A stretch of 64,000 bases of DNA, taken from the IMG/VR virus record IMGVR_UViG_3300021963_000036; one strand, 5' to 3'. Made by a program: the position numbers and the translations under genes. A model generated the notes under the pieces. It did not search any database, was not told where the DNA came from, and saw only the letters and a program-made list of their open reading frames with translations. Below are positions 3,548 to 35,822 of the stretch, piece by piece; positions within the stretch are counted from its first letter, which is position 1; every line of letters starts with the position of its first letter. Source of the stretch: a virus. Lineage: Duplodnaviria; Heunggongvirae; Uroviricota; Caudoviricetes.

Positions 3548-6418
3548 ATGGCAAAGGCATTAGTATATCTAGTCAATGGCGTTTTAAGTCCGAACGTCGA
3601 AGCTACCGACACGTTCGCAAGTTGGATTGACACAACCAACCAACTAGTATATGATATGGGTACGGTAGTACTTACTGCTACGGCTAATACTCAGCCTAAT
3701 GGTACGACATCGGCTGCCGGTTGGACAGCTGGTAACTCTCATCTTGAAGGGTTCTTCTCAGCAAATACTCTTGTGGCAGCTACGGCTCTGCGCGGTGGTA
3801 CAGTAAGCACTACCACAGATTTACTTATCACATCTAATACTATATTCAGTCAAGGATCACTCGTTCTAGTTGGTGCGAATACAAATAACTTCACCGTGAA
3901 TGCTAATAACTCATTGTTTACAAGCAACGTTGCTATTGCTAACACATCAAAAGTGTTTACAATTTCTGTTGCAAATACATCAATCAACGACGGCCCGTTA
4001 TACGTAAAGACTAATGCATGGTTCACCGGTGCTATTACAGATATTCTTGGTACAACTGCTAACGTTACGTCAAATACAGTATTCACTTCAAGTACGATGT
4101 TTGCAAACGTTGACCTAGTTACGATTGGTGCAAACGCATCTGATAGTTTAGTCGTAAATTCTGTAGTTGACATCAACTCAAATACAAACATCGACGGTAT
4201 TCTGACTGTAACCGCGAATGCAAACTTTAGCGGTACAAATACAACCTTTACTGCTATTGAAGCATCAGGTGAAATCCGACTCAAGGGTACGTCTACTCGT
4301 ACTATTAAGACACAGAGTACGAACTCAACAATGTCTTCGCTGAATATCAGTGTGGCAAATACATCTGCTACTGTAACTCCACTTATTGTATCTTCTACTG
4401 CTTTGCTGCCAGATACTACGACAACATACGATATAGGTTCTGCTTCCGCAACATGGAATAAGGCATGGTTCAAAGATCTCGATGTAGCGAACAGCGTAAA
4501 CATTCAGGTTGACGCCGAAGTCGATCGTGATATGGTTGTGCGTCGTGACTTATATGTTTATGGAAGTACAACTCTTTCTTCTAACGCAACTCTCTCGCTA
4601 AATACTTCTAGTATTACAGATCTAAATGTATTGAGTACATTATCCTTTATTGGTGGTGCTGGGTTCGATACAAACGCATTACCTACAGCTAACGTGACAT
4701 ATTCGCTCGGTTCAAGCACTATGCGTTGGAATCAATTGTTCGCGAATAATGTAACGGCAAATACCGCTACACTTACAGTGTTGACGACTGGTTCGGTTGG
4801 TTCTGATTTAATTCCATCTGCTAACGTAACATATTCTATCGGTGCTACTGCTACTCGTTGGAATCAGGTATTTGCTAATAACGTAACTTCAAATACTGTT
4901 AACGCCACAACAGTGACTGCAGCGCTTGTAGGTAATGCTTCGACAGCTACTACTTTACAGACGGCTCGAACCATTAACGGTGTTTCATTCAACGGTTCGG
5001 CAAATATTACAGTAACAGCGAATACAAACAATACTCTTACGCGTGGGTCTTATCTTACAGGATCAAACTTTGATGGCTCTGCTGCTACAACTTGGGCGGT
5101 CGATGCTACAACTACTGCAACTGCAAGTAAGGTTGTAGCAAGAGATACTCTTGGTAACTTTGCAGCAAATACTATCAGCGCAGATCTTGCAGGAAATGCA
5201 ACTACGGCAACAACTCTACAAACTATACGAACCATTAACGGTATAAGTTTTGATGGTTCTGCTAATATCATTGTTACAGCGAATACTAATACTACATTAA
5301 CACGTGGAACGTATCTCACTGGTTCTAACTTTAATGGATCTACTGCTACTACATGGGCAGTTGACGCTACAACTACTGCAACAGCGTCAAAGGTAGTTGC
5401 AAGAGATACTCTTGGTAACTTCTCTTCTAATACCATCACTGCAGATCTTGTAGGTAACGCAACTACAGCAACAACCTTTGAAACGGCTAGAACCATTAAT
5501 GGCGTATCGTTCAACGGTTCTGCTAATATCACGGTTACTGCAAACACTAACGCAGTGTTGACAAATGGTTCTTATCTAACTGGTTCTAACTTCAATGGCA
5601 GCACTGCTACAACTTGGGCAGTCGACGCAACATCTACTGCTGCTCTAAGTAACATCGTAGCCAGAGATGCATCAGGAAACTTTGCTGCGAATACGATTAC
5701 TGCGGCATTATTCGCTGGAGTCGGTTCGTCTATAACAAACATTAATGGCACTAACGTTACTTCTGGTACAATTGCAGATGCTAGAATTGCAACCACTCTA
5801 GTTCGCACATCAACGGCTATTACCGCCGGTGACGGTATTGATGGTGGTGGAGATTTAAGTGCGAGTAGAACAGTGGCTGTCGATGCTACGGTTGTACGTA
5901 CAACTGGCGCGCAAAGTATTGCTGGAGGTAAATCTTTTACTTCTAACATTACTACAAACACCGTGACGCCAAATGCTAACGTAACATATAACGTTGGTTC
6001 ATCTAATATGCGATATAACGCTATGTGGGCGACTACATTTAATGGTATCGCTACAACCGCACAGTACGCTGACCTTGCAGAAAAGTATCTAGCAGATGCA
6101 GAGTATTCAGTTGGAACAGTTATTGCAGTAGGTGGTACTGCTGAAGTGACTGCAGCTAGTGTTGATAATGCTCACTCAGTCCTCGGTGTTGTATCCGACA
6201 AGCCAGCATATCTCATGAACAGCGATCTCGAAGGTGGTACTACAGTTGCTCTTAAGGGTCGAGTTCCTGTAAAAGTTGTATACGAAATTAAAAAGGGTGA
6301 CAGACTTGCGCCTTCACCAGTGTCTGGTTATGCATGGGCGGACAACACAAAGGGTGCATGGGCATTCGCAATCTCGCTTGAAGATGGAACTGATATTGTA
6401 GAGGCTGTTATCCTCTAA
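3548..6418 (+). CDS. Tail fibre protein 1 with C-terminal intramolecular-chaperone-like domain
   Basis: T/A/N/S-rich, with three 87-aa repeats. C-terminal YADLAEKY...VALKGRVPVKV domain (peptidase G2/IMC-like). Confidence 0.8.
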   Translation: MAKALVYLVNGVLSPNVEATDTFASWIDTTNQLVYDMGTVVLTATANTQPNGTTSAAGWTAGNSHLEGFFSANTLVAATALRGGTVSTTTDLLITSNTIFSQGSLVLVGANTNNFTVNANNSLFTSNVAIANTSKVFTISVANTSINDGPLYVKTNAWFTGAITDILGTTANVTSNTVFTSSTMFANVDLVTIGANASDSLVVNSVVDINSNTNIDGILTVTANANFSGTNTTFTAIEASGEIRLKGTSTRTIKTQSTNSTMSSLNISVANTSATVTPLIVSSTALLPDTTTTYDIGSASATWNKAWFKDLDVANSVNIQVDAEVDRDMVVRRDLYVYGSTTLSSNATLSLNTSSITDLNVLSTLSFIGGAGFDTNALPTANVTYSLGSSTMRWNQLFANNVTANTATLTVLTTGSVGSDLIPSANVTYSIGATATRWNQVFANNVTSNTVNATTVTAALVGNASTATTLQTARTINGVSFNGSANITVTANTNNTLTRGSYLTGSNFDGSAATTWAVDATTTATASKVVARDTLGNFAANTISADLAGNATTATTLQTIRTINGISFDGSANIIVTANTNTTLTRGTYLTGSNFNGSTATTWAVDATTTATASKVVARDTLGNFSSNTITADLVGNATTATTFETARTINGVSFNGSANITVTANTNAVLTNGSYLTGSNFNGSTATTWAVDATSTAALSNIVARDASGNFAANTITAALFAGVGSSITNINGTNVTSGTIADARIATTLVRTSTAITAGDGIDGGGDLSASRTVAVDATVVRTTGAQSIAGGKSFTSNITTNTVTPNANVTYNVGSSNMRYNAMWATTFNGIATTAQYADLAEKYLADAEYSVGTVIAVGGTAEVTAASVDNAHSVLGVVSDKPAYLMNSDLEGGTTVALKGRVPVKVVYEIKKGDRLAPSPVSGYAWADNTKGAWAFAISLEDGTDIVEAVIL
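4931..5713 (+). repeat. 3 x 261-nt (87-aa) coding tandem repeat in fibre 1
   Basis: GNA(S/T)TATT...RTING units start at 4931, 5192 and 5453. Confidence 0.85.
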
Positions 6419-10015: not shown

Positions 10016-10210
10016 ATGGTTGCTGACGTAACAAGCACATTTACAGCTAGTCCTACAGTCACCCCAGCAAAAGCAACTGGCTCAACTATTGATGCTGCTT
10101 CTTTTCGAGAGATGGTGAATACGCTCGACGCATTGATTCAGCATAGTCATACCTTTACCGATGACTATACATCTAACTGTCAGTGTAACTGCCAGAGAGG
10201 CAGCATCTAA
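10016..10210 (+). CDS. Small protein with HxH motif and Cys-rich tail; putative radical SAM substrate
   Basis: 64 aa ending HSHTFTDDYTSNCQCNCQRGSI, directly abutting a SPASM radical SAM gene. Confidence 0.65.
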   Translation: MVADVTSTFTASPTVTPAKATGSTIDAASFREMVNTLDALIQHSHTFTDDYTSNCQCNCQRGSI

Positions 10211-11860
10211 GTGACAACAAATTATGTGAATGTGAAAAGGGTACTCAGTGAAGCCCAAAAGAAACGCTTAGAAAATCATACGCCAACTGTTGTTGAACAG
10301 GATGGCAAGTTAGTCACAACCTTTGAGACCATCAATATCTCAGGTAAAGGGCAGAAGACAAACAAACTCATTACGGTTCTTCCAGCTGAAGAAGAGCAAG
10401 CAGTTCCATTTGCCGATGCGGAGTTTCTATATCGTGACCTGATTCAAGTCAATGCGATGTTGACAAACGCATGTAACCTCAGTTGCTCTTACTGCTACGA
10501 GCAACACAATAAAGACTTTGGTCGATTCACAAAAGAATCCCTTAAGCAAGTCTATGATTGGATGAACTCTCGTAACAATGGCAAGAAGAAGGTGTTCCAA
10601 TTCTTTGGTGGTGAACCCCTTATCCATAAGCCTCTGATTAAAGAGTTTCTCGAAACCTACGATGAAGAGTTGTCGGGTAACTATAAAGACTATCGTGGCA
10701 CATACATTTCGATGTGTACAAACGGACTTCTATTGAATGATGAATTCATTGAGTTCTACTTTGGTAAACCATACACTCACATGATGTTGAGTCTTGATAC
10801 CCTCAATTCTGCAATTGATCATAGAGAAATCACTCCTGCACAGCTGAACAAAGTTCTCAAGAGTATCGACAAGATCGTAGAAGTTCTCGGTGATGATGCG
10901 AACCGTCTTGTGATTCGAGCTACGCTCTCACAAGAGACTTCACGTGACATGAAGAACTTCATCGAGACCTTGTATGACCACGGAATTCGTAACATGGTTG
11001 TTCATCCACTCGTGCTTGACTCAAGACATGGCTACATCTCATGGAAAGACGATAACTGGCAGAATATGCGAAATGCAATCTTCGGTGCACTTGAGAAGTA
11101 TGAAGACCTTTACATTCGATTCTCTGAAGGTGTTGGTCTGAAGGAAGATAGCAACTGCATGGTTGGCTCACATATGGTGGCTATCGATGCGTCTGGTGAC
11201 TTCTCAGGTTGCTACTTCTTTACGAATCAGAAATCTAATGGCGCTGACATCGCTGTGCTCGGGAATGTGTTCCAGGATCGTGTATACATAGATCGGTACA
11301 AGAAGTTTCAAAGCGCTTATCAGGAGATGTTCGACACAGAAGAGCAGTGTCGAACCTGCGACTATCAGGATGCTTGCTATCAATGCCCTGCTGGTAATAT
11401 GGATACTGGTTCGAGAATCTTCCGCCCTGACGATATGTGCCAAAAGATTGTAAAGCTTTACGTTGACTTCCAACATGACGTAGCAAAGAAACTATTCATG
11501 CGACACGTGAAGAAACGATACACTCGACTGCAAGAACATGGTGAAAAAGTCTTAGCTGCGGAGTTGCAGTACTTTTATGAGAAATTTAATGGGAGCGGCA
11601 TAGATGATTTTGAGCATTATTTACGGATGGATCTTCCTCATTATAGTGATGTCATACGTGCCTGGACCGTGGACAGCGAAACCCAAGCAGCCGATCTACG
11701 TTCGCTCTACAACGTCCTCGCAAAAAGATTCGACAAACCAAGAATCGATATCGAAATCACATCTGACTTCATAAAGTGTTATTATATCCAATGCATATCG
11801 ACGATCATCTTCGACAAGAACAGAATGAACGAAGTCAAACTTACGACTTTGCTGGAATAA
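10211..11860 (+). CDS. Radical SAM/SPASM protein
   Basis: CNLSCSYC, FFGGEPL, SPASM-like CMVG...GCYFF and CRTCDYQDACYQCPAG...C. Confidence 0.85.
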   Translation: MTTNYVNVKRVLSEAQKKRLENHTPTVVEQDGKLVTTFETINISGKGQKTNKLITVLPAEEEQAVPFADAEFLYRDLIQVNAMLTNACNLSCSYCYEQHNKDFGRFTKESLKQVYDWMNSRNNGKKKVFQFFGGEPLIHKPLIKEFLETYDEELSGNYKDYRGTYISMCTNGLLLNDEFIEFYFGKPYTHMMLSLDTLNSAIDHREITPAQLNKVLKSIDKIVEVLGDDANRLVIRATLSQETSRDMKNFIETLYDHGIRNMVVHPLVLDSRHGYISWKDDNWQNMRNAIFGALEKYEDLYIRFSEGVGLKEDSNCMVGSHMVAIDASGDFSGCYFFTNQKSNGADIAVLGNVFQDRVYIDRYKKFQSAYQEMFDTEEQCRTCDYQDACYQCPAGNMDTGSRIFRPDDMCQKIVKLYVDFQHDVAKKLFMRHVKKRYTRLQEHGEKVLAAELQYFYEKFNGSGIDDFEHYLRMDLPHYSDVIRAWTVDSETQAADLRSLYNVLAKRFDKPRIDIEITSDFIKCYYIQCISTIIFDKNRMNEVKLTTLLE

Positions 11861-14880: not shown

Positions 14881-15252
14881 ATGGCAATATTAGCAGGAAC
14901 TACTTCTACTGACGTAGCATTATCGTTACGTACAACTTATACTACACCGCTGTTGGCACAAATCGCAAGCGGTAACACAGTGCAAGCTGCGCACATGACA
15001 TTACTCAAAAACTTCATTAATGCTATTGAACCGCATACTCATACGCTAACCGACTATTCTAAAATTCACGAATTTGGAAACACAGATAGTACATTATCAA
15101 CTGTAGATACTGTTACTGCCGTATCAACATCTCCTATATCAGCGACATATGCGACTGGTGGCACCATTACTGCAGCTGATTATACAGCAATGCGTACAAC
15201 TGTAGAGGCACTCAGAGTACACAATCACGCATGGGATGATCTAACGGCATGA
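14881..15252 (+). CDS. Small fibre-like protein with two HxH-motif repeats; putative radical SAM substrate or structural partner
   Basis: Internal repeat ASGNTVQAAH...HTHTLTD / ATGGTITAAD...HNHAWDD, similar to the 10016 protein. Confidence 0.65.
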   Translation: MAILAGTTSTDVALSLRTTYTTPLLAQIASGNTVQAAHMTLLKNFINAIEPHTHTLTDYSKIHEFGNTDSTLSTVDTVTAVSTSPISATYATGGTITAADYTAMRTTVEALRVHNHAWDDLTA

Positions 15253-23800: not shown

Positions 23801-24913
23801 GCTAGCGGTAGTGGTACTACTGTAACGCTCACATTTGCTGCTCAAGCTGCAGCACCGTTTCAAGTCGGTTCACAAATTATTGTAGCGGGTGTTACACCTA
23901 CTGGTTACAACGGAACATTTACCGTCACTGCATGTACGACAACCACGGTTTCTTATGCGAATGCAACGACAGGTGCTCAGACTGTTGCAGGCACAGTTAA
24001 GATGGGCGCTGCACTCACGAACTCAACTATTCCAGTAGCTACAGTACAAGGCACTGATGTATACGTATCTTCTTGGACATCAGACTCAATTGGTGCAAGA
24101 ATTCGTCTTGAAGCAAATGATACCTCAATATCTGCTGGTCAAGAATATGGTGCAATCGCCTTTAGTAGTCGTGATGCTACTGTAAATGGATCTGGCGATT
24201 TAGCATTAATCCGTGGGGTTGCCGTTAATACTTCCGGTGGTGGCGAAATACAATTCTGGACTGCAGGAAATGGCGAAGCACCTAATATATCAGCAACTAT
24301 TACTTCAGGCGGAAACTTTAGACTTTATAACGCGGCTGGTACATTCTATTCAGAGCTTGCAAACAGCCCAACTGCAAACAGAACAATTAGTTTCCCAGAT
24401 TCCACGTTTACTGTAGCAGGAACTAATATAGCTCAGACATTTACTGCTGTTCAAACACATAGCGCAAATATTATACCTTCAACCACAGCTGCATACGATC
24501 TTGGCACAACCGCACTCCGCTGGAACGTTATGTATGGTACAGCAACTGCTGCTCGATACGCTGACCTTGCAGAAAAGTATCTAGCAGATGATGAGTATCC
24601 CGTAGGTACCGTTATGAGTGTTGGTGGTGAAGCAGAAGTAACTGCTGCAACTCCTGAAACAGCACATTCAATCGTAGGTGTTGTCTCTGAAAAGCCAGCC
24701 TATCTTATGAATGACTGCTTAGAAGGTGGTACGGCAATCGCACTTCGCGGCCGTGTTCCAGTAAGAGTAGTTGGAGTAGTGAAAAAAGGCGACAGACTTA
24801 CAGTCTCTACTACTCCGGGTTGTGCAGTTTCTGACAACAACGCAGTTAGATCCTTTGCAATTGCCCTGCATGATTCAAACAAAACTGAAATAGTAGAAGC
24901 AATCATTCTATGA
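20837..24913 (+). CDS. Tail fibre protein 3 with C-terminal intramolecular-chaperone-like domain
   Basis: N-terminal IKAKRSS...P...L..GE..IN..DGKLF, repeat modules shared with fibres 1 and 2, C-terminal YADLAEKY...ALRGRVPV. Confidence 0.8.
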   Translation: MSTLIKAKRSSVQGKVPLTTDLELGEFAINTFDGKLFIKKNVNGTESIIDITAAAVPTLDSVVIGGNTTTNSITVGGLTVNGDITVTGTVDGRDVSVDGTKLDGIESGATGDQTATEILTAIKTVDGSGSGLDSDLLDGQDGSYYLDWTNATNKPDPVITLAGDLSGSVTLTDLASGTLTATIVADSVALGTDTTGNYVASITNGSYITGGNGGSEGAALTLAVDAATTATASKVVARDASGNFSANTITAALTGNATTATTLQTSRTIGGVSFDGSANINLPGVNTTGNQNTTGSAATLTTARTISLGGDLSGSASFNGSTNITITATVQPDSVALGTDTTGNYVSSVTGGTGVTITGTIGEGWSPTISIGQNVATTSNVEFHDLILSGNLTINGTTTTINATELAISDNIIYLNDGLAVANPDLGIVGNYNDGTTYAHTGVFRDATDDRWKFFKGYTPEPGQTIDTAHASFQYADVQANTFYGALSGNATTATTLQTARTIAISGDITGTATSFNGGADITISSAITAGAIVNADINASAAIADTKLATISTVGKVLNSATTATNLNTASAIVARDASGNFTAGTITAALTGAASSNVLKAGDTMTGKLNTAGNDSARLIESLNTSASSAIQFYVEHNLATTNVGNARGVLNLVSTGALTIGGSVALTASNYSTYASPLAGSSSLTTTGTVTSGTWSGSFGAVSGANLTSLTAGNLTGTIPSAVLGNSTHYIGTTAIALNRASGSQTLTGVSIDGNAATVTNGALTTGTLAQFAATTSSQLAGVISDETGSGALVFGTSPSFTTGINAASATMALFDTTATTVDAFGAATSLNLGYDGTASSSTTNISGGAAASAVTKTINIGINGASGSITNINIGSATAGAVGNTVVNSTSLIVPGNMSVGSNILATTGPILTLGTLAGGGSGYMDGTHTNQGLTGGTGAYMLGTVTVALGVVTAITLTWGGHRYSAGDVLTVPSLSTTLATTAASGSGTTVTLTFAAQAAAPFQVGSQIIVAGVTPTGYNGTFTVTACTTTTVSYANATTGAQTVAGTVKMGAALTNSTIPVATVQGTDVYVSSWTSDSIGARIRLEANDTSISAGQEYGAIAFSSRDATVNGSGDLALIRGVAVNTSGGGEIQFWTAGNGEAPNISATITSGGNFRLYNAAGTFYSELANSPTANRTISFPDSTFTVAGTNIAQTFTAVQTHSANIIPSTTAAYDLGTTALRWNVMYGTATAARYADLAEKYLADDEYPVGTVMSVGGEAEVTAATPETAHSIVGVVSEKPAYLMNDCLEGGTAIALRGRVPVRVVGVVKKGDRLTVSTTPGCAVSDNNAVRSFAIALHDSNKTEIVEAIIL

Positions 24914-25410
24914 TAACAACAAGTGAAGCGTATGAGATTCTTTCTCATACGCTATTATATGAGCAGAAGTTAGTAAGAGCAATAGACACTCAGCACCTTC
25001 AACACGACGTGCACGACTTCGGTGAACTCATTCGGTATAGATCAAGCGGATGTTCGATCAAAGTTGAAGGAATGGAACGATTTTCTATTGACATCTTCAA
25101 CCAAGGTAGATTGTATGCTAAGTCGTATCTGCACGACGGTCCAGTGACTTGCCATATGTTCATCTCTCCGGCCGGTTCACCATCATTTCCGATGCATACC
25201 GATCCAGATCATGTAATCATACATTGCTGCGAAGGTATTAAGCGGATGAAGATTCGAGATGATATGATTGATCTTCATCCTGGCTCGTACGCATATATAC
25301 CTTATGATACGCCACATATGGCGTTGAATGAGTATGATGCTCTTACACTTAGTTTTGGATTAGAGCGATTTTTGAAGGACAAGATGAATGAACTGGGTGT
25401 TCTATCTTAA
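24910..25410 (+). CDS. JmjC/cupin-type Fe(II)/2OG oxygenase
   Basis: SFPMHTDPDHVII...EGIKRM (HxD) and YIPYDTPHMA (distal His). Confidence 0.7.
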   Translation: MITTSEAYEILSHTLLYEQKLVRAIDTQHLQHDVHDFGELIRYRSSGCSIKVEGMERFSIDIFNQGRLYAKSYLHDGPVTCHMFISPAGSPSFPMHTDPDHVIIHCCEGIKRMKIRDDMIDLHPGSYAYIPYDTPHMALNEYDALTLSFGLERFLKDKMNELGVLS

Positions 25411-26407
25411 GACTACTGAAACGTGCAATCTGAATTGCAGTCATTGTTTCACAAATGGTATCAATGGAGCAAAGATCTATTTTGATCCGGTAAAAGTATC
25501 GAATTGGATTCACAACTTTCATAAAGAAAAATTCAAAGACGGCGATACGATTCACTATGAGTTTCATGGCGGAGAACCGTTTCTTGCACCACTAGAACAC
25601 ATGAAAATGGTTGTAGACCGATGCAAAGATTTATCAACTAATCAATCATTCGGAGCAACGACCAATTTAACATACAAGTTAAAACAGGATCAGATAGAGT
25701 TTATAAAAAATGAACTTGGTGGTAGGATTGGCACATCCTGGGATCCTAAGATTCGGTTCACTAATAACAAGCAATATAAGTTGTGGCATTCTAACGTTAA
25801 GACCTTGCTAGCCGAAGGCATTCACGTCAAGTTGTTTATAAGCGTCACTCGAGATACGATCTCTTATAAGCCGATCACGTTACTGCGATGGATTCGTAGA
25901 CTTGGAGTTCAAGAAGTATCGTTTGAGCGGTTAACAAGTAACGGATCAGCTAAGATGTTTCCACACATTTTCCCAACTAATATAGAGCTTAATAAGTGGT
26001 TTGTAGACCTACACCTCGACTCCGAACATTATCAGGCTCGCAATTGGTTTGATAACGAATCTTTAGAGAACATATATTCTAAGTTTGAAAAGGGGTACAC
26101 TTGTGCTGGAACTTTCTGTAGAGATTGTGAAGAAAAGATTTTCACAATAAACGCGGATGGCACAATATCTGGTTGTCCTAATGCTGCACCAGAGTTTCAT
26201 TATGGATCAATAGACGACACTGTTAGCGCCATTATAAATAGTCCAAGAAGGCTTCGTAGTATTGTAGAAGAACGAAGCAGAAACCCTAAGTGCTACACAT
26301 GCCCAGTCTTTCAGTATTGTAATGGCGATTGCCATCAGTTAGAATGGCAAGATGACATATGTGGAGCTCCGAAGAGTCTGATGAAATTATTGGCTAAGAT
26401 GGAATAA
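25388..26407 (+). CDS. Radical SAM/SPASM protein
   Basis: CNLNCSHC, FHGGEPF, CAGTFCRDC...GCPN, CYTCPVFQYCNGDC...C. Confidence 0.85.
   Translation: MNWVFYLKTTETCNLNCSHCFTNGINGAKIYFDPVKVSNWIHNFHKEKFKDGDTIHYEFHGGEPFLAPLEHMKMVVDRCKDLSTNQSFGATTNLTYKLKQDQIEFIKNELGGRIGTSWDPKIRFTNNKQYKLWHSNVKTLLAEGIHVKLFISVTRDTISYKPITLLRWIRRLGVQEVSFERLTSNGSAKMFPHIFPTNIELNKWFVDLHLDSEHYQARNWFDNESLENIYSKFEKGYTCAGTFCRDCEEKIFTINADGTISGCPNAAPEFHYGSIDDTVSAIINSPRRLRSIVEERSRNPKCYTCPVFQYCNGDCHQLEWQDDICGAPKSLMKLLAKME
26233..26240 (+). promoter_or_regulatory. T4 late promoter
   Basis: Exact TATAAATA about 170 nt upstream of the 26410 ORF. Confidence 0.55.
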
Positions 26408-26409
26408 GT

Positions 26410-27024
26410 ATGGCTACTTTAACAAATAACATAAATGACCAAAACGTAGTAGACCGTTTCGCTGACTATGTTGTTGCAACTGCAAATGCTAGTATTATAT
26501 ATGCTGATAATGCTAACCCATTCGCACCAACTTATTCATCGTATTTCCCAAACATATGGGGTGGCTCGACAACGGGTAAAACGATCGGTATCACTGGAAC
26601 AAACTTAGGAGGTACTGGATCACTTATTACTGCTGCAACAATCGTAAGTGTGTTGCGTGCAGAAACTACCGCATATACTCGAATTAGAAACCTCAGAGCA
26701 GTATTAACGATTAGTGGAGCTGGCAATACCGTCGGTGCTGGTACTAGAGTCGATGCTGGCCCGATTACTGGTCAGGGTCCTGGAAACATTATTGACGTCA
26801 CTGGTAAAGCAAATCTTAGCACAACATATCTGCAAACTTTAGGCGCGACTGCGTCAACTGGTATAGCTACTGATAGTGATATTAATACTTTGAATTTAGA
26901 AACATTTTTTACGAATTTGCGAACTGCATATACTACTGCTAGGGATACTGTACAACTACAGCAAGTTACAGTATGTCACGCATCATGTCACAGCAATTGC
27001 CACAGCTCGCGTGGTCGGAGATAA
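26410..27024 (+). CDS. Fibre-like protein with C-terminal (CHxx)3 tail; putative radical SAM substrate
   Basis: T/A/G-rich body ending VCHASCHSNCHSSRGRR; its only Cys and His residues are in the tail. Confidence 0.65.
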   Translation: MATLTNNINDQNVVDRFADYVVATANASIIYADNANPFAPTYSSYFPNIWGGSTTGKTIGITGTNLGGTGSLITAATIVSVLRAETTAYTRIRNLRAVLTISGAGNTVGAGTRVDAGPITGQGPGNIIDVTGKANLSTTYLQTLGATASTGIATDSDINTLNLETFFTNLRTAYTTARDTVQLQQVTVCHASCHSNCHSSRGRR

Positions 27025-27028
27025 TATT

Positions 27029-27739
27029 ATGAGTGTCATTTACACCAAAGCCCCTATCGGTTTAGAAGACCTGAAAGTGTATTTTCAAGACAAAGATACT
27101 AAGTACTTAATCGATTATGGTACATCAGATCTGAAAGGTGAAAAACTATTAACATATCTCGGTAATCTAGATATACCTTGCGATATCATATACGATAATG
27201 ATGAATCGTTATTTGAAATGGTTGAAGCATATCTCAAGTTTAATCACATTGTAAACATTGAATCGTTAGAGTCAAGAGTAATTGACATGATCTTTCAACG
27301 AAAGAATCTTAAGCCACAATTCACACCAGAGATTATTGATAAATTTTCTGGTATGCTTGATCAATGGATTCAAAAATTAGAATCGCTTGTACTCTTCAAT
27401 ATATTCTGTGTAAATGACGAGACACTCAAAGATTATGTTCGCGCACAAAAAGAAGATGATACTAATAGTACAGAAGGTATCAACTTTGTCAGTCTGCTGA
27501 AGCATCAAAATTTCTATACCTTTTTCGAAGGTGTTAATGAGTCTGATCTTATATACTACTCTAAATACTTTAATGAATATATGTTTAAAGGAAAAAACTT
27601 ATATTCGTATTGGGCAAATGAGAATAACCCGATGTTTCTTCTTACTTGGGGAATCGTTACTGGTGGCTTTGAAAACCAAGATTATATAGATGCAAAGATA
27701 AAATCAATCGGAGAAGTAGTCGATGTTTCACCTGTTTAA
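27029..27739 (+). CDS. Hypothetical protein
   Basis: ATG at 27029, just after the previous stop. Confidence 0.6.
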   Translation: MSVIYTKAPIGLEDLKVYFQDKDTKYLIDYGTSDLKGEKLLTYLGNLDIPCDIIYDNDESLFEMVEAYLKFNHIVNIESLESRVIDMIFQRKNLKPQFTPEIIDKFSGMLDQWIQKLESLVLFNIFCVNDETLKDYVRAQKEDDTNSTEGINFVSLLKHQNFYTFFEGVNESDLIYYSKYFNEYMFKGKNLYSYWANENNPMFLLTWGIVTGGFENQDYIDAKIKSIGEVVDVSPV

Positions 27740-28889
27740 TAAAGTCTATATAGATTTTGATGAAAAAATTAATATGAGTTATGATCGAATTATCGTGTCG
27801 TCTGAACACGGTGGTAATGAGATTTTAACTGACCTGAAAGTTGTGTTTTATGGTAGTGTTTTAGCTACCGTTAAATCTGTTGATAATCTATTTGGCGAAA
27901 GCGCACCATACTCATCGTTTTTAGATATGTTGATTGCAGTAAAAGAGTGCGGTGATGAAAGTAACCGCCCTGTATACATTTACTGTGATTTTGAATCATA
28001 CTACAAACTAGCTAGTAAATGGCTTAAATTGCTTTTGCCTAATGCTACTACTACAGATGGATGGAAGTTTTTTAAATCACATATGTTCAAAGAAAAGAAC
28101 TTTATCAACAGCCGTATGTCAGCTACACAGCGATTCGCAAATAGTGTTTCTGAGACTTGGGCTTTAGAAGAAGCGCTATTCACAACTTGTTGGGAAGCAG
28201 ACGCAGAAATCAGATCTGACTATAAACAATTCATCGATTCTGTGAAATCAAAACTTAGAGTTGAGTTCCTATTAGCGTCTTATCTTTACGATGGCAGATA
28301 TGCTGAAGAATTAGCTTTTTGTATGTCTCCACTTATCAAGAAAGATATTGAAAAGTTTCTATACGAACATAAAGAAATTTTGCTTGTACACTTCCAAAAA
28401 CCACTGTTTCAACAGCTACTGCAAGTTCAAAACGGACCATATACGTTTGATAATTTTTATGATATGCCAAACGATCCAGCTCCAATGATCGAAGTAATGT
28501 GTCGTCCATCCATTTGGGGTAACACAAAGACGTCTATGTCTGCACCATCTGCTGCTGGCAATATCAACTTGCAAAATATTACAGCAGTTGACATTTCTGT
28601 TCTAAGGCAGTATAGTATTGTAACCGGCACAGTTTGGACTGATGAGCAATGGTATACTATACTGAGATCTGAAATAGATAAGCTAGATTTTATTCCATTC
28701 TTTGCTAATGGTGATGTCATTAGTGTTGCGGATATGCAGAAAGTTATCGATTATGAACTGCACCATCACAATCATGCTGCCGGTGCATTCTATGCTATCG
28801 ACCTAGGATCTGTCAATACATACTTCGTTGACTTTATCCTACAGAACCACCAAAATAAAGAACTCCTTCTTAAATATACGTTAGGTTAA
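27723..28889 (+). CDS. Hypothetical protein
   Basis: 388-aa ORF overlapping the upstream gene. Confidence 0.6.
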   Translation: MFHLFNKVYIDFDEKINMSYDRIIVSSEHGGNEILTDLKVVFYGSVLATVKSVDNLFGESAPYSSFLDMLIAVKECGDESNRPVYIYCDFESYYKLASKWLKLLLPNATTTDGWKFFKSHMFKEKNFINSRMSATQRFANSVSETWALEEALFTTCWEADAEIRSDYKQFIDSVKSKLRVEFLLASYLYDGRYAEELAFCMSPLIKKDIEKFLYEHKEILLVHFQKPLFQQLLQVQNGPYTFDNFYDMPNDPAPMIEVMCRPSIWGNTKTSMSAPSAAGNINLQNITAVDISVLRQYSIVTGTVWTDEQWYTILRSEIDKLDFIPFFANGDVISVADMQKVIDYELHHHNHAAGAFYAIDLGSVNTYFVDFILQNHQNKELLLKYTLG

Positions 28890-28891
28890 TA

Positions 28892-29374
28892 ATGCTTGAG
28901 AACTTTTTATTGAATGGATTCGCGACTGGTATTATGCAGTCTGATTTGGCTTTTTTGTTTAAGAGATTCCAGTTTGCTGATTGCAACGATGGTGATTCTG
29001 AGATAGACCCTGAAGCAGTAAACTTGCTAAATGCACTACACTCATTCATCAGCAATACTTATGTGTCACCTCTATTTAGTGAATACACCATTGCGCGAAG
29101 CTGTATGTGGACCGGCGTGGATAGTCTATCTAAAGACTGGCATAATGATAACTGTGCAGAGTTCAACAGCAATTTCTTAATATATCTAGACGATGGGGAG
29201 ACCTACGGTAACTCTATTGAGATCAAAACACCTTCTGAAGAGTTTAAAATCTATCCAAAGAAGAATCAATTTGTATGGTTGAACCAAGACAAAAAATTCT
29301 TGCACAGAGCTACTCATGTCAGTGGTCCTAGACGCCTGTTGTCATTCGAGTTTAAGATACCAGCCATTCCATGA
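28892..29374 (+). CDS. 2OG-Fe(II) oxygenase
   Basis: WHND...LIYLDD...LHRA...GPRR (HxD...H...R). Confidence 0.7.
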   Translation: MLENFLLNGFATGIMQSDLAFLFKRFQFADCNDGDSEIDPEAVNLLNALHSFISNTYVSPLFSEYTIARSCMWTGVDSLSKDWHNDNCAEFNSNFLIYLDDGETYGNSIEIKTPSEEFKIYPKKNQFVWLNQDKKFLHRATHVSGPRRLLSFEFKIPAIP

Positions 29375-30381
29375 GCATATATGATGTAATTGGCCAGAAG
29401 GTCATTGATTACGCAGAAATCGTAGTCTGTTTATTTGAACATTGTAATCTTGCGTGTGTATTCTGTCCTCAGGATCACCGATCAATAGTTGGCGCGAGTA
29501 GAGAAGAAATACTTGCGAAGGTCGATAGCATAGCCGAGTGGATAAACAACAACAAAAGATCAAAGCATTTTAAGATCCACTTGATGGGTGGTGAGTTGTT
29601 TCAGGACCATTGGATAGAACGCGGTTTTCTTGACATCTACCAAGAGTTTATAGAAAGCATTCGTAACAAAGTGATTGGCGACAAATTTGTTGAAGCCAAC
29701 TTTATCACTAATCTATTGTTTGATGATGTAGAAACGATTCAGTCATTCTTAGAAGAACACGACTACATCATATCTGTATCGTACGATCCGACTGGCAGAT
29801 TTAACAACGATCAACTAGAACAGTTTAAGTCTAACGTAGTTCTGCTAAAAGATCGAATTCGAATGATCAGTTGTGTTGCGACTAAGCAAAGCATTAAGCG
29901 TATCATAGACGGTGATACGTTCTTTGATTATCTGTATGCTAACTTCCCGTGTGATTTTGATTCGCTTATTCCAGCTGTTAGCACATCAGAAGCACTGATG
30001 CCAAGCGAGACTGAGATGCTGGCATTCTACAAGCATCTTGTCGACAACTATCCTGACTGTATAAATATTGCGTACTTCACTGAAGATACTCCGACGAATA
30101 AGATGTCATGTACTAGAGGTAATAGTTATACTGTATTACCTACCGGTCCAGTTCCAATTGGGTGCTCTGGCTCTATATTTCTAACGAACCCATCATCGAA
30201 CGATCTATTCTCTGGTATGATAGTAGAGAAGTTTATCAATCGGTATAATTGCTTTGAATGTGAGTTCTACAAGAAGTGTCCATTTACATGCTTTATTAAA
30301 AATGACTACTCTAAGATAAAAAGAGACCTAGGTGAATGTGTTTTCAAAGAGACCTTTAAGTATGTTGAATCAAAAAGTTAA
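29371..30381 (+). CDS. Radical SAM protein with SPASM-like C-terminus
   Basis: CNLACVFC, LMGGEL, CFECEFYKKCPFTC...C. Confidence 0.8.
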   Translation: MSIYDVIGQKVIDYAEIVVCLFEHCNLACVFCPQDHRSIVGASREEILAKVDSIAEWINNNKRSKHFKIHLMGGELFQDHWIERGFLDIYQEFIESIRNKVIGDKFVEANFITNLLFDDVETIQSFLEEHDYIISVSYDPTGRFNNDQLEQFKSNVVLLKDRIRMISCVATKQSIKRIIDGDTFFDYLYANFPCDFDSLIPAVSTSEALMPSETEMLAFYKHLVDNYPDCINIAYFTEDTPTNKMSCTRGNSYTVLPTGPVPIGCSGSIFLTNPSSNDLFSGMIVEKFINRYNCFECEFYKKCPFTCFIKNDYSKIKRDLGECVFKETFKYVESKS

Positions 30382-32110
30382 TATAGCGTTTATCAACCCG
30401 CCTCATGCTGATTGGTGTTTGGCAAATAACGCTGCGTATCTGATGTTTCAAAGTCACTACAGTAGATACGGTAAGTTTGGTGATAAAGTAAACTGGATTC
30501 CGGCTCCGTATAAGTTCAACGAGTATCAATCTATTGAAGACATCTATGAAGAAGTAAAAGATGCCGACATCTTCTTATTCTCTAGCTATATCTGGAACTA
30601 TGACATATGCGACTCGTTATGTTCATTTGTCAAAGATGTTAAGCCAAATGCAATTTGTGTATTAGGTGGTCCGCAGATTGGTACTAACGATGCCGAATTT
30701 TTAAACTCTCGACCGGCATATGACTTCATACTTAAGCCGACTAAACCTGGAGAAGAGTTTGTAAAAGATCTGATCGACTCATACTTCGAGAATAATAAAC
30801 AACCGAAGCGTGAAGATCTATCATGGGAACTGAACAGTGAGAAAACTTGCCCGCAATTCATGCAAGACTATAGTGTATATAGCGAACACTTCGACTATTT
30901 GAAAGAGACACGAACCTACGCTCAAGACAACTACCTTGAACCGTTCTGTATTTTAGAAACCACCCGTGGGTGTCCATACAGTTGTAGTTTTTGCGAATGG
31001 GGAGGTGGCATTGGATCTAAGGTATACAAAAAACCAACGGATGTTGTGAAGCAAGACATCCTTGCTCTTAGAGATGCTGGCTTCAGAGACATGTATCTAA
31101 CAGATGCAAACTTCGGAGCCTTTGTCGAAAGAGACATGGAAATCTTTAAGTTTGCATATGATAACAAAGCAAACCTCACCGACATTAGTACAATGAAAAG
31201 TAAGGATCTAGCCAGACGTATCAGTTTGGTTGATGCTTGCTTCAACGTAGTTGGAACTGGTCCCGAGATGCATAGCATATCTACTACCAAAAAAGAAGGC
31301 GGGTTTATCCTTGTAGCAGGAGCACCAGAATATACCGCGCAGGTTAATGAAGGAAATCCATACATCAGTATAGTACCAACCGTCAGCCTGCAAAGTGTCA
31401 GTGAAGAAGCTATGAAGGTTGCTGCAAGGGTTGACTTGAAGCTAGATGATAAGTTGAAGTTAAGCGAACACATCAATAAAAGATGTCACGAACAGGGCTA
31501 TCCCGTGCCAGCGTTAGAGTTGATTTTAGGTATGCCGGGAAGTACGAAAGACGACTTCTATAGAGAGTTCGATATACTATGGAACTTTAAGTCGTGGAGT
31601 AGTTTCAGACATGATTATATGTTTTTGCCGGATTCGGCCTTGACAAACCCAGAATACATCAAGAAGTATAAGATCGAACTAGTAGAAGTTTACACCGATC
31701 TTATTGACGAAGAGGGTGTTGACAATCAGTTAAGTTTCTACAAGTCGAAGAGAAATCGGTTTAAGACGATATCGTCTTGCTACTCATACAGTTACACCGA
31801 CATGTGCGAAATGTGGTTTATGAATATCGCTGGTAATACTCTGTTGAAAGAACTTTACCACCTATTTGAAAATGATATAACTCCTGGAAATTTCGGTAAA
31901 CTATGTTACGAAATAATTTCAAGACTCGACGATTATAAACCAATACGCGATGAGATCGCAGATATATTGAATCCTGCAACACCTGCTAGAAATATTAAGC
32001 GCTTAGATGGTGTGCTTAGAAATCAGACTATTAACAATCTACTAGATAAGTATAAAACAATCATAATATCAGAGATGTTTAAACATCTTCATGTTAAGGG
32101 TGCAGCATGA
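30362..32110 (+). CDS. B12-binding radical SAM protein (paralogue of 6427..8445)
   Basis: FLFSSYIWN...VLGGP and RGCPYSCSFCEWGGGIGSK. ATG at 30362. Confidence 0.8.
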   Translation: MLNQKVNIAFINPPHADWCLANNAAYLMFQSHYSRYGKFGDKVNWIPAPYKFNEYQSIEDIYEEVKDADIFLFSSYIWNYDICDSLCSFVKDVKPNAICVLGGPQIGTNDAEFLNSRPAYDFILKPTKPGEEFVKDLIDSYFENNKQPKREDLSWELNSEKTCPQFMQDYSVYSEHFDYLKETRTYAQDNYLEPFCILETTRGCPYSCSFCEWGGGIGSKVYKKPTDVVKQDILALRDAGFRDMYLTDANFGAFVERDMEIFKFAYDNKANLTDISTMKSKDLARRISLVDACFNVVGTGPEMHSISTTKKEGGFILVAGAPEYTAQVNEGNPYISIVPTVSLQSVSEEAMKVAARVDLKLDDKLKLSEHINKRCHEQGYPVPALELILGMPGSTKDDFYREFDILWNFKSWSSFRHDYMFLPDSALTNPEYIKKYKIELVEVYTDLIDEEGVDNQLSFYKSKRNRFKTISSCYSYSYTDMCEMWFMNIAGNTLLKELYHLFENDITPGNFGKLCYEIISRLDDYKPIRDEIADILNPATPARNIKRLDGVLRNQTINNLLDKYKTIIISEMFKHLHVKGAA

Positions 32111-35814: not shown

Positions 35815-35822
35815 TATAAATA
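35815..35822 (+). promoter_or_regulatory. T4 late promoter
   Basis: Intergenic TATAAATA before gp13. Confidence 0.8.

Follow-up and report, generated by a model that had tools for sequence, protein, structure and literature searches.

A conserved C-terminal Cys-His tail on a phage protein, a probable modification site of adjacent radical SAM enzymes

Introduction

In cells, radical S-adenosylmethionine (rSAM) enzymes with a SPASM domain produce peptide natural products as well as protein cofactors. Triceptide synthases, for example, join the C2 carbon of a His to the beta carbon (Cbeta) of the third residue, as HaaB does in HAA, YhhB in HNR and HtkB in HTK (PMC11499958). Phage genomes with many rSAM genes have been remarked on for years with no assigned target (PMC2853527; PMC5332604), and papers on the cultured phages discussed below class the cupin and rSAM genes considered here as accessory, with a role unknown (PMC11898562). 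Here, we describe a locus in a 64,000-nucleotide stretch of the caudoviricete record IMGVR_UViG_3300021963_000036 (hereafter, the window), in which a 204-residue protein, the tail protein, ends in three Cys-His-x-x repeats and is encoded directly after an rSAM/SPASM gene, rSAM1. Comparative genomics and one published proteome lend good support to the interpretation of this C-terminal tail as an enzyme substrate.

Results

The tail is invariant among distant homologues

The tail protein and its proposed maturase are laid out as follows:

25388..26407, + strand: rSAM1, radical SAM/SPASM enzyme of 339 residues, proposed tail maturase (SPASM models pass)
26410..27024, + strand: tail protein, open reading frame (ORF) of 204 residues
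26410..26973, + strand: residues 1-188 of the tail protein, a globular alpha/beta body (AlphaFold2 predicted local distance difference test, pLDDT, 87; predicted template modeling score, pTM, 0.83)
26974..27024, + strand: tail of 16 residues plus stop codon, with invariant Cys, His and Arg, at the exact C terminus

The protein ends in VCHASCHSNCHSSRGRR, which reads V-C-H-A-S-C-H-S-N-C-H-S-S-R-G-R-R; the first tail Cys codon begins at 26974 and the stop codon occupies 27022-27024. Cys 189, 193 and 197 and His 190, 194 and 198 are the sole Cys and His residues of the protein. The original prediction, made from the letters of the window, had confined all Cys and His to the tail and had read its spacing as CxxxCH rather than CxxCH; the translation bears out both statements, as only CX3CH strings occur in the tail. 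A degenerate DNA pattern encoding (Cys-His-x-x)2-Cys-His had a single match in the window and none in 100 dinucleotide-preserving shuffles, yet the real measure of the non-randomness of the tail is its conservation rather than the shuffles.

A word-indexed search returned 319 relatives of the tail protein, all metagenomic and 180-216 residues long, and an exhaustive search of representatives at 50% identity returned 204 relatives at E <= 0.001. The tail was present in all of the closest homologues (120/120) and in 138 of 148 further ones (a protein set that also held two cupin translations), with truncations, read-throughs or one-residue variants as the exceptions. The consensus over these 258 full-motif sequences is [VI]-C-H-x-S-C-H-x-[SN]-C-H-x-S-R-x-R-R-COOH. 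The three Cys, the three His and the Arg at positions -4, -2 and -1 are invariant at body identities down to ~26%, the residue preceding the first tail Cys is Val or Ile, and the protein ends with the tail in every case. Three residues on from each Cys, Ser predominates, Asn is less frequent, and Ala or Asp is rare, with Asp in 2/258 sequences and at one tail position. The third repeat reads C-H-[G/S]-S-R, its middle residue being Gly or Ser, or Ala in six of the sequences. The tail is thus conserved, as it had to be if the original prediction was to survive. Since synonymous codons vary freely among 80 distinct tail DNAs (TGT/TGC, CAT/CAC, AGY/TCN and AGA/CGN), selection acts on the tail peptide and not on the DNA.

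Three rare variants were also seen (P0195, P0166 and P0183). One has Phe for the middle His (C-F-T-S), while in the other two the middle Cys is gone and H-x-N is retained (C-H-S-N-H-A-N-T-C-H).

No Pfam or NCBIfam model matches the tail protein (an NCBIfam scan of the 204 residues gave 0 families at E <= 0.01). In PHROGs, its last ~50 residues alone match phrog_35144, an unannotated family of phage RSL2. Literature searches found no description of the tail motif or of the module around it, within a coverage that was incomplete and leaves absence unproven.

The tail and rSAM1 are linked in both directions

Synteny was assessed from the tail in 80 IMG/VR loci centered on tail-protein homologues, 79 of which had upstream DNA. 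The rSAM1 gene lay directly upstream in 77/79 loci and within 2.3 kb in all 79; a second rSAM gene intervened in one of the two remaining loci, and rSAM1 was 2.2 kb off in the other. In the window, the rSAM1 stop codon lies 2 nt upstream of the tail protein ATG. Conversely, a strict tail motif was found downstream in 75 of 80 loci centered on rSAM1 homologues, and in the five tail-less loci the contig ended within ~300 nt past rSAM1, so that the linkage holds in 75/75 of the loci that reach further. The usual gene order in IMG/VR was cupin, rSAM1, tail protein, two downstream genes (d1 and d2), an optional oxygenase, a second rSAM enzyme (rSAM2) and an optional B12-binding rSAM enzyme. As judged from gene order, such two-way synteny over very distant phages is the pattern of an enzyme-substrate pair.

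A pattern scan of contigs from metagenome-assembled genomes (MAGs) yielded nine loci with the same module, several of them labeled Bdellovibrio-like, beside about 600 further matches, a number of the order expected by chance. In five MAG contigs labeled Bdellovibrio-like, of up to 299 kb (L085-L088 and L091), the module has a rearranged gene order; these may be jumbo-phage contigs binned with bacterial genomes. A contig labeled Rhodobacteraceae (L090) carries at 5237-6054 two tandem genes, of 137 and 134 residues, which have the same tail on a body unlike that of the window, with cupin and rSAM1 genes 4-5 kb away.

Cultured jumbo phages carry the tail, and one orthologue is in the virion

Neither the whole tail protein nor its residues 130-204 gave a tblastn match in 50,697 phage records. 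Cultured orthologues were reached solely via the rSAM1 gene, which has orthologues of 42-49% identity in jumbo phages of Ralstonia, Burkholderia, Agrobacterium, Sinorhizobium and Pseudomonas. In all four cultured lineages that were examined (4/4), the gene after rSAM1 ends in the same tail:

Ralstonia phage RSL2, ORF068: 186 residues, tail end VCHSSCHTSCHGSRGRR
Agrobacterium phage Atu_ph07, gp170: 296 residues, tail end FCHSSCHASCHNSRSRR
Pseudomonas phage DT01, tail-bearing protein: 178 residues, tail end ICHTSCHTSCHSARGRR
Sinorhizobium phage Phosso, tail-bearing protein: 306 residues, tail end YCHTSCHASCHSSRSRR

Because bodies that tblastn does not link to the window protein bear the same tail in these four phages, the tail is the constant element and the body is exchangeable.

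The virions of Atu_ph07 were studied by sodium dodecyl sulfate (SDS) polyacrylamide gel electrophoresis and electrospray tandem mass spectrometry (Attai et al. 2018, PMC6102473). The gp170 protein is among the virion proteins (31.89 kDa, 8 unique peptides, 35% coverage); it was found in gel bands 1-9 and peaked in band 1, the top of the gel (PMC6102473 Table S5). Other virion proteins of ~30 kDa peak in bands 7-8, and band 1 otherwise holds proteins of 75-139 kDa, apart from two small proteins with weak support; no reductant is named in the description of the loading buffer (PMC6102473). The published gp170 mass equals that of the translated Atu_ph07 gene (P0122), and gp176 and gp177 of the same table likewise agree with the RefSeq numbering. 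The products of the neighboring genes, gp168, gp169, gp171 and gp172 (rSAM2, d1, rSAM1 and cupin, respectively), are absent from the virion list (PMC6102473 Table S5). The presence of gp170 in the virion as a high-mass species, with the enzymes left unpackaged, therefore fits a structural substrate with non-structural maturases, a match that concerns location rather than the modification itself.

The body is a globular domain

In an AlphaFold2 model built with 111 sequences, three long helices pack on a three-stranded sheet, and residues 113-121 form a disordered loop. The original prediction had called the protein fiber-like, a description at odds with this confidently modeled globular domain. 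The last ~15 residues have a pLDDT of ~55 and a weak helix at 191-198; the low confidence is as expected, because a flexible, accessible end should score low. No fold relative of the body was found in the PDB (Foldseek E>1; best VIA-align Z 4.3, root-mean-square deviation 5.5 Å over 134 residues), and searches of PDB by Foldseek, VIA-align wide, BFVD and AFDB clusters gave no relative outside the family. The fold-level matches were family members only, including a weak match to Atu_ph07 gp170 (E 2e-6). In one metagenomic protein of 453 residues (P0146), an N-terminal Gly_rich_2 region of 265 residues (PF21722; phrog_863, tail fiber assembly) is fused to a tail-bearing domain.

Enzymes and other genes of the cassette

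The module sits in the tail-fiber block of a T4-like phage, with genes for sheath, portal, major head protein and terminase downstream. Besides rSAM1 and the tail protein, it comprises:

24910..25410, + strand: cupin, a JmjC-like Fe(II) oxygenase, first gene of the cassette (Cupin_2 5.8e-7, JmjC_2 1.9e-5)
26233..26240, + strand: TATAAATA, element resembling a T4-type late promoter, within rSAM1 and 177 nt ahead of the tail protein start
27029..27739, + strand: d1, 236 residues, phrog_20767, conserved downstream gene
27723..28889, + strand: d2, 388 residues, syntenic in most loci
28892..29374, + strand: 2-oxoglutarate (2OG)-Fe(II) oxygenase-like protein, 160 residues, variable module member found in some loci (PF13640 7e-5, below cut-off)
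29371..30381, + strand: rSAM2, second radical SAM enzyme, 336 residues (phrog_1802 1.1e-31; SPASM-type Cys pattern)
30332..32110, + strand: B12-binding radical SAM enzyme, methyltransferase-like, variable member found in about half of the loci (KedN5-family 3.3e-30, below cut-off)

By its scores, rSAM1 belongs to the radical SAM/SPASM enzymes (PF13186 27.5 against a cut-off of 21.5; TIGR04085 39.5 against 27). Among 45 orthologues, the Cys of its CX3CX2C motif (C13, C17 and C20) and eight Cys of the SPASM part (244, 247, 263, 302, 305, 311, 315 and 325) are invariant. Because the CX3CX2C motif already stands at residues 13-20, the enzyme has no N-terminal RRE, the recognition element for peptides (RiPPs) that are made on ribosomes and modified after translation. 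Full-length matches were obtained to the models PapB, DynA, DarE, QhpD and that of the anaerobic sulfatase-maturating enzymes (anSME), each at less than one fifth of the cut-off score; all named maturase models fall far below their cut-offs, PapB being the best (59.6 against 340). The best solved relatives, at E about 1e-7, are 8vpo and then the anSME 4k37 (E 6e-7), while ChlB (9gm3) reaches only 8.8e-5. When rSAM1 and the tail protein were modeled as a complex together with SAM and three 4Fe-4S clusters, the score was 0.00 against a mark of 0.32, which speaks neither for nor against binding.

The cupin passes the JmjC_2 cut-off (24.6 against 22). Across 33 orthologues, H96-x-D98, K111 and H136 are invariant, the H-x-D...H triad with a Lys 13 residues after the Asp that characterizes JmjC-type enzymes; from FIH and MINA53, this Lys is the presumed 2OG binder. 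Among solved protein hydroxylases, the histidyl hydroxylase MINA53 is nearest (2xdv, E 2.9e-5), and generic cupins rank ahead of it. A cupin gene stands upstream of rSAM1 in most loci, including RSL2, Atu_ph07 and DT01. The C-terminal part of rSAM2 reads CX2CX5CX3C in translation, and its gene occurs in RSL2, Atu_ph07, DT01 and nearly all loci. The protein encoded at 30332..32110 matches the B12-binding and Radical_SAM models of Pfam.

All IMG/VR loci that extend downstream have d1 after the tail gene; it also lies downstream in RSL2 and Atu_ph07, and in Atu_ph07 it is adjacent. Its AlphaFold2 model is confident (pLDDT 86), but searches of its fold (PDB Foldseek, VIA-align wide) gave no clear match, the best having a Z of 4.4 over the first 55 residues only; no RRE-like partner was recognized in this way. 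A search of the ESM Atlas with d1 came back empty, and d2 had no match in Pfam, NCBIfam or PHROG.

The element TATAAATA occurs 12 times in the window, where 3.3 copies are expected, always on the + strand and never (0) on the - strand (for example at 35815, 40177 and 48851). Most copies lie 26-58 nt ahead of structural genes, as T4-type late promoters do. The copy inside rSAM1, judged by its position, could lift the level of the tail protein above that of its enzyme late in infection.

Other rSAM genes of the window

Eight rSAM genes lie within a ~25-kb part of the tail-fiber block (window 10211-34875), at 10211, 11776, 15249, 25388, 29371, 30332, 32939 and 33964, and seven of the eight match phrog_1802. 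A 64-residue ORF at 10016-10210 ends in SNCQCNCQRGSI, and its stop codon abuts the GTG start of the 549-residue rSAM enzyme at 10211; from this arrangement, the two look like a second candidate target-maturase pair. At 14881-15252, immediately ahead of the 424-residue rSAM enzyme at 15249, lies a 123-residue ORF whose two internal repeats end in H-T-H and H-N-H; it looks like the target of a third candidate pair.

Discussion

A proposed modification site on a virion protein

On balance, we think it probable that the adjacent enzymes modify this tail, which is carried on a virion protein. This reading rests on conservation, synteny, enzyme class and the virion location of one orthologue, and from these we infer the modification. 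The original prediction had proposed a substrate of the neighboring enzymes; conservation of the tail and its two-way synteny with rSAM1 uphold that part, while a fiber body and membership of a curated system find no support.

In the proposed mechanism, the 16-residue tail, (C-H-x-S)3-R-x-R-R-COOH, would be the recognition and modification site of rSAM1, with the cupin and rSAM2 as probable further modifiers. The carrier would be a small globular protein of the tail-fiber/baseplate module that ends up in the virion. As rSAM1 lacks an RRE domain and the body varies from lineage to lineage, the enzyme presumably recognizes the exposed C-terminal tail itself, whose Arg-rich end stands at a fixed distance from the repeats. 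It might abstract one hydrogen atom per C-H-x-S unit, closing a small ring or oxidizing a residue. We rank three candidate chemistries. The leading one would join His-C2 to Cbeta of the Ser or Asn two residues on, giving a triceptide-like, three-residue cyclophane three times over; the next would be a thioether from the Cys sulfur to the alpha or beta carbon of that Ser or Asn; in the last, Cys or Ser would be oxidized to an aldehyde in the manner of anSME. His or Arg could be hydroxylated by the cupin, whose distant relatives MINA53, NO66 and YcfD carry out such reactions. One SPASM enzyme for each invariant residue type, that is two enzymes for Cys and His, is a reasonable guess. The finished tail may be a rigid, cationic and possibly metal-binding or cross-linking anchor, and this would fit gp170 at the top of the non-reducing gel. 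The fuller proposal, in which a dedicated phage pathway of two SPASM rSAM enzymes and a JmjC-type oxygenase installs a new cross-linked Cys/His structure on the C terminus of a virion protein, is held tentatively and falls slightly short of an even call.

The third residues of the repeats (Ser, Asn, Ala and Asp) are all unbranched at the beta carbon, which counts toward a His-Cbeta cyclophane, as do the variant with Phe for His and the Cys-losing variants that keep H-x-N. In addition, the thioether-forming enzyme CteB leaves one auxiliary-cluster site open for the substrate thiolate, as opposed to the two fully ligated clusters that the eight SPASM Cys of rSAM1 would allow. For Cys chemistry speak the Cys residues of the tail, as invariant as the His, the top match of rSAM1 to PapB, and the resemblance of the last repeat to the sulfatase motif C-x-x-x-R.

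Alternative explanations

Several observations weigh against modification. Invariant Cys and His would be equally expected of a plain metal site. The variants lacking a Cys or carrying Phe are three sequences of about 270 and may be defective. Since all maturase scores lie far below their cut-offs, homology gives the class of rSAM1 and not its reaction. Finally, simple disulfides or SDS-stable oligomers would explain gp170 at the top of a gel run without reductant as well. One alternative is an unmodified site for Zn, Fe, Cu or Fe-S, perhaps shared between subunits; the rSAM link would then reflect joint action, for example in delivering clusters or metal or in a shared step of assembly. His motifs of phage fibers and spikes are known to bind metal ions, Cys and His are the only invariant residues within the repeats, and a period of four would place them on one side of a helix such as that weakly predicted at 191-198. 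Yet a metal site needs neither Ser or Asn third after each Cys nor an exact R-x-R-R C terminus, and a natural variant has Phe for His. The presence of the Atu_ph07 protein in the virion, where its enzymes are not, argues against a helper of these enzymes, and a metal site would not explain why the synteny with a class of peptide-modifying enzymes is complete in both directions. We regard such a site as unlikely. In another account, the tail Cys would simply form intermolecular disulfides locking the protein into the virion, with the rSAM enzymes acting on other targets such as tail fibers; the dominance of gp170 in the top band without reductant agrees with this, and eight rSAM genes among the fiber genes of the window suggest that other targets exist. 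Disulfides leave the invariant His, Ser and Arg and the strict adjacency to one rSAM orthologue group without explanation, and we find this account improbable.

It is slightly more doubtful still that the tail is the precursor of a cofactor or small molecule, as for mycofactocin or pyrroloquinoline quinone, on a body that serves as a carrier only. A short C-terminal segment that hardly varies is typically seen in cofactor precursors, in contrast to variable RiPP cores, and the module is rich in enzymes (two SPASM enzymes, the cupin, and often the B12-binding rSAM enzyme and 2OG oxygenases). Against such a precursor, Pfam, NCBIfam and PHROGs scans recognized no peptidase in the module, and the carrier body is conserved within lineages, well folded and found in virions. 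The two overlapping C-x-x-x-C-H strings readable in the tail might also be taken for heme c attachment sites; we rejected this reading, to which we assign next to no probability, as the canonical CXXCH is absent, no cytochrome family matches, and the neighbors are rSAM enzymes and not heme lyases.

Significance

The present observations give one family of phage rSAM enzymes a precise candidate substrate. The tail is recognizable from sequence alone and occurs in hundreds of phage genomes, including the cultured and tractable Atu_ph07, RSL2, DT01 and Phosso; the proposed pathway would range from T4-like marine viruses to 490-kb jumbo phages. If the proposal is true, it would mark the first time that a component of the virus particle is modified post-translationally by radical-SAM enzymes, and the tail would define a new RiPP-like substrate class, with an invariant 16-residue core on interchangeable folded domains. 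A real modification would also mean new chemistry in virion assembly or host recognition, and would give enzymologists a compact enzyme lacking an RRE, together with a portable tag of 16 residues.

Comparison with known systems

The tail shares several features with the triceptides. Its H-A-S, H-S-N and H-S-S segments are of the aromatic-X-X type, and H-x-[S/N] is kept even in the variants that lose a Cys; an rSAM/SPASM enzyme stands beside its target, the second residue of each motif varies whereas the third is limited in choice, and the natural His-to-Phe variant parallels the promiscuity of HtkB. The H-x-S pattern singled out by the original prediction accordingly agrees with known His-x-x cyclophane substrates (PMC11499958). 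Unlike in triceptides, an invariant Cys precedes each tail His, and the target is the C terminus of a folded virion protein of ~200 residues and not a leader-core peptide. Moreover, rSAM1 lies outside the characterized synthase families (YhhB 26.8 against 445, FxsB 20.9 against 370, AmcB 30.5 against 425).

The original prediction had also invoked two curated precursor classes, the His-Xaa-Ser and CXXX-repeat systems; neither could be upheld, as no precursor model matched and the maturase models scored far below their cut-offs. The tail does resemble the His-Xaa-Ser system (HxsA with HxsB/HxsC; TIGR03978/TIGR03977) in its H-x-S repeats and in the two rSAM enzymes of its module, with weak best matches of rSAM1 to HxsB (6.5e-7) and of rSAM2 to HxsC (0.008). 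It differs in a period of four with Cys and in its context of phage structural genes. HxsB scores 28.5 against 370 and HxsC 15.1 against 267.9, short of the equivalog cut-offs; no Hxs model, that of the HxsA repeats included, matches the tail protein, d1 or d2. As in CXXX-repeat peptides (TIGR04115), Cys recurs every fourth residue (C189, C193 and C197), at a spacing invariant in the 258 sequences and beside a SPASM enzyme, and a feature search of the ESM Atlas with the tail protein led to a Cxxx-repeat target cluster at 0.79, a sub-threshold lead only. In contrast to that class, there are three repeats only and a His is invariant after each Cys; TIGR04115 scores 24 against 350 for rSAM1, over the N-terminal 75 residues only, so that rSAM1 does not qualify as its maturase.

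Among the thioether maturases, PapB is the best NCBIfam match of rSAM1 (3e-16, full length), and QhpD, like the proposed enzyme, modifies a small protein. Their acceptors are Asp or Glu, whereas none occurs in the 16 tail residues of the window protein, and the ranthipeptide spacing Cys-X3-Asp/Glu is absent. The anSME enzymes act on C/S-x-P/A-x-R in folded proteins. Like them, rSAM1 is a compact SPASM enzyme without an RRE, and its eight SPASM Cys allow two fully ligated auxiliary clusters. The third tail repeat, C-H-[G/S]-S-R, has Cys and Arg in the register of the anSME target but Gly or Ser, rarely Ala, at the middle residue, and the first two repeats have no Arg. The anSME model, however, scores 50.6 against 349 for rSAM1, short of the equivalog cut-off. 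The Asp that follows the Gx4C cysteine of anSME is the proposed catalytic base, and this C-D aligns to the invariant C263-P264 of rSAM1. Taken together, the locus fits best under the theme of rSAM/SPASM maturases and their targets, with a virion protein as an unusual setting.

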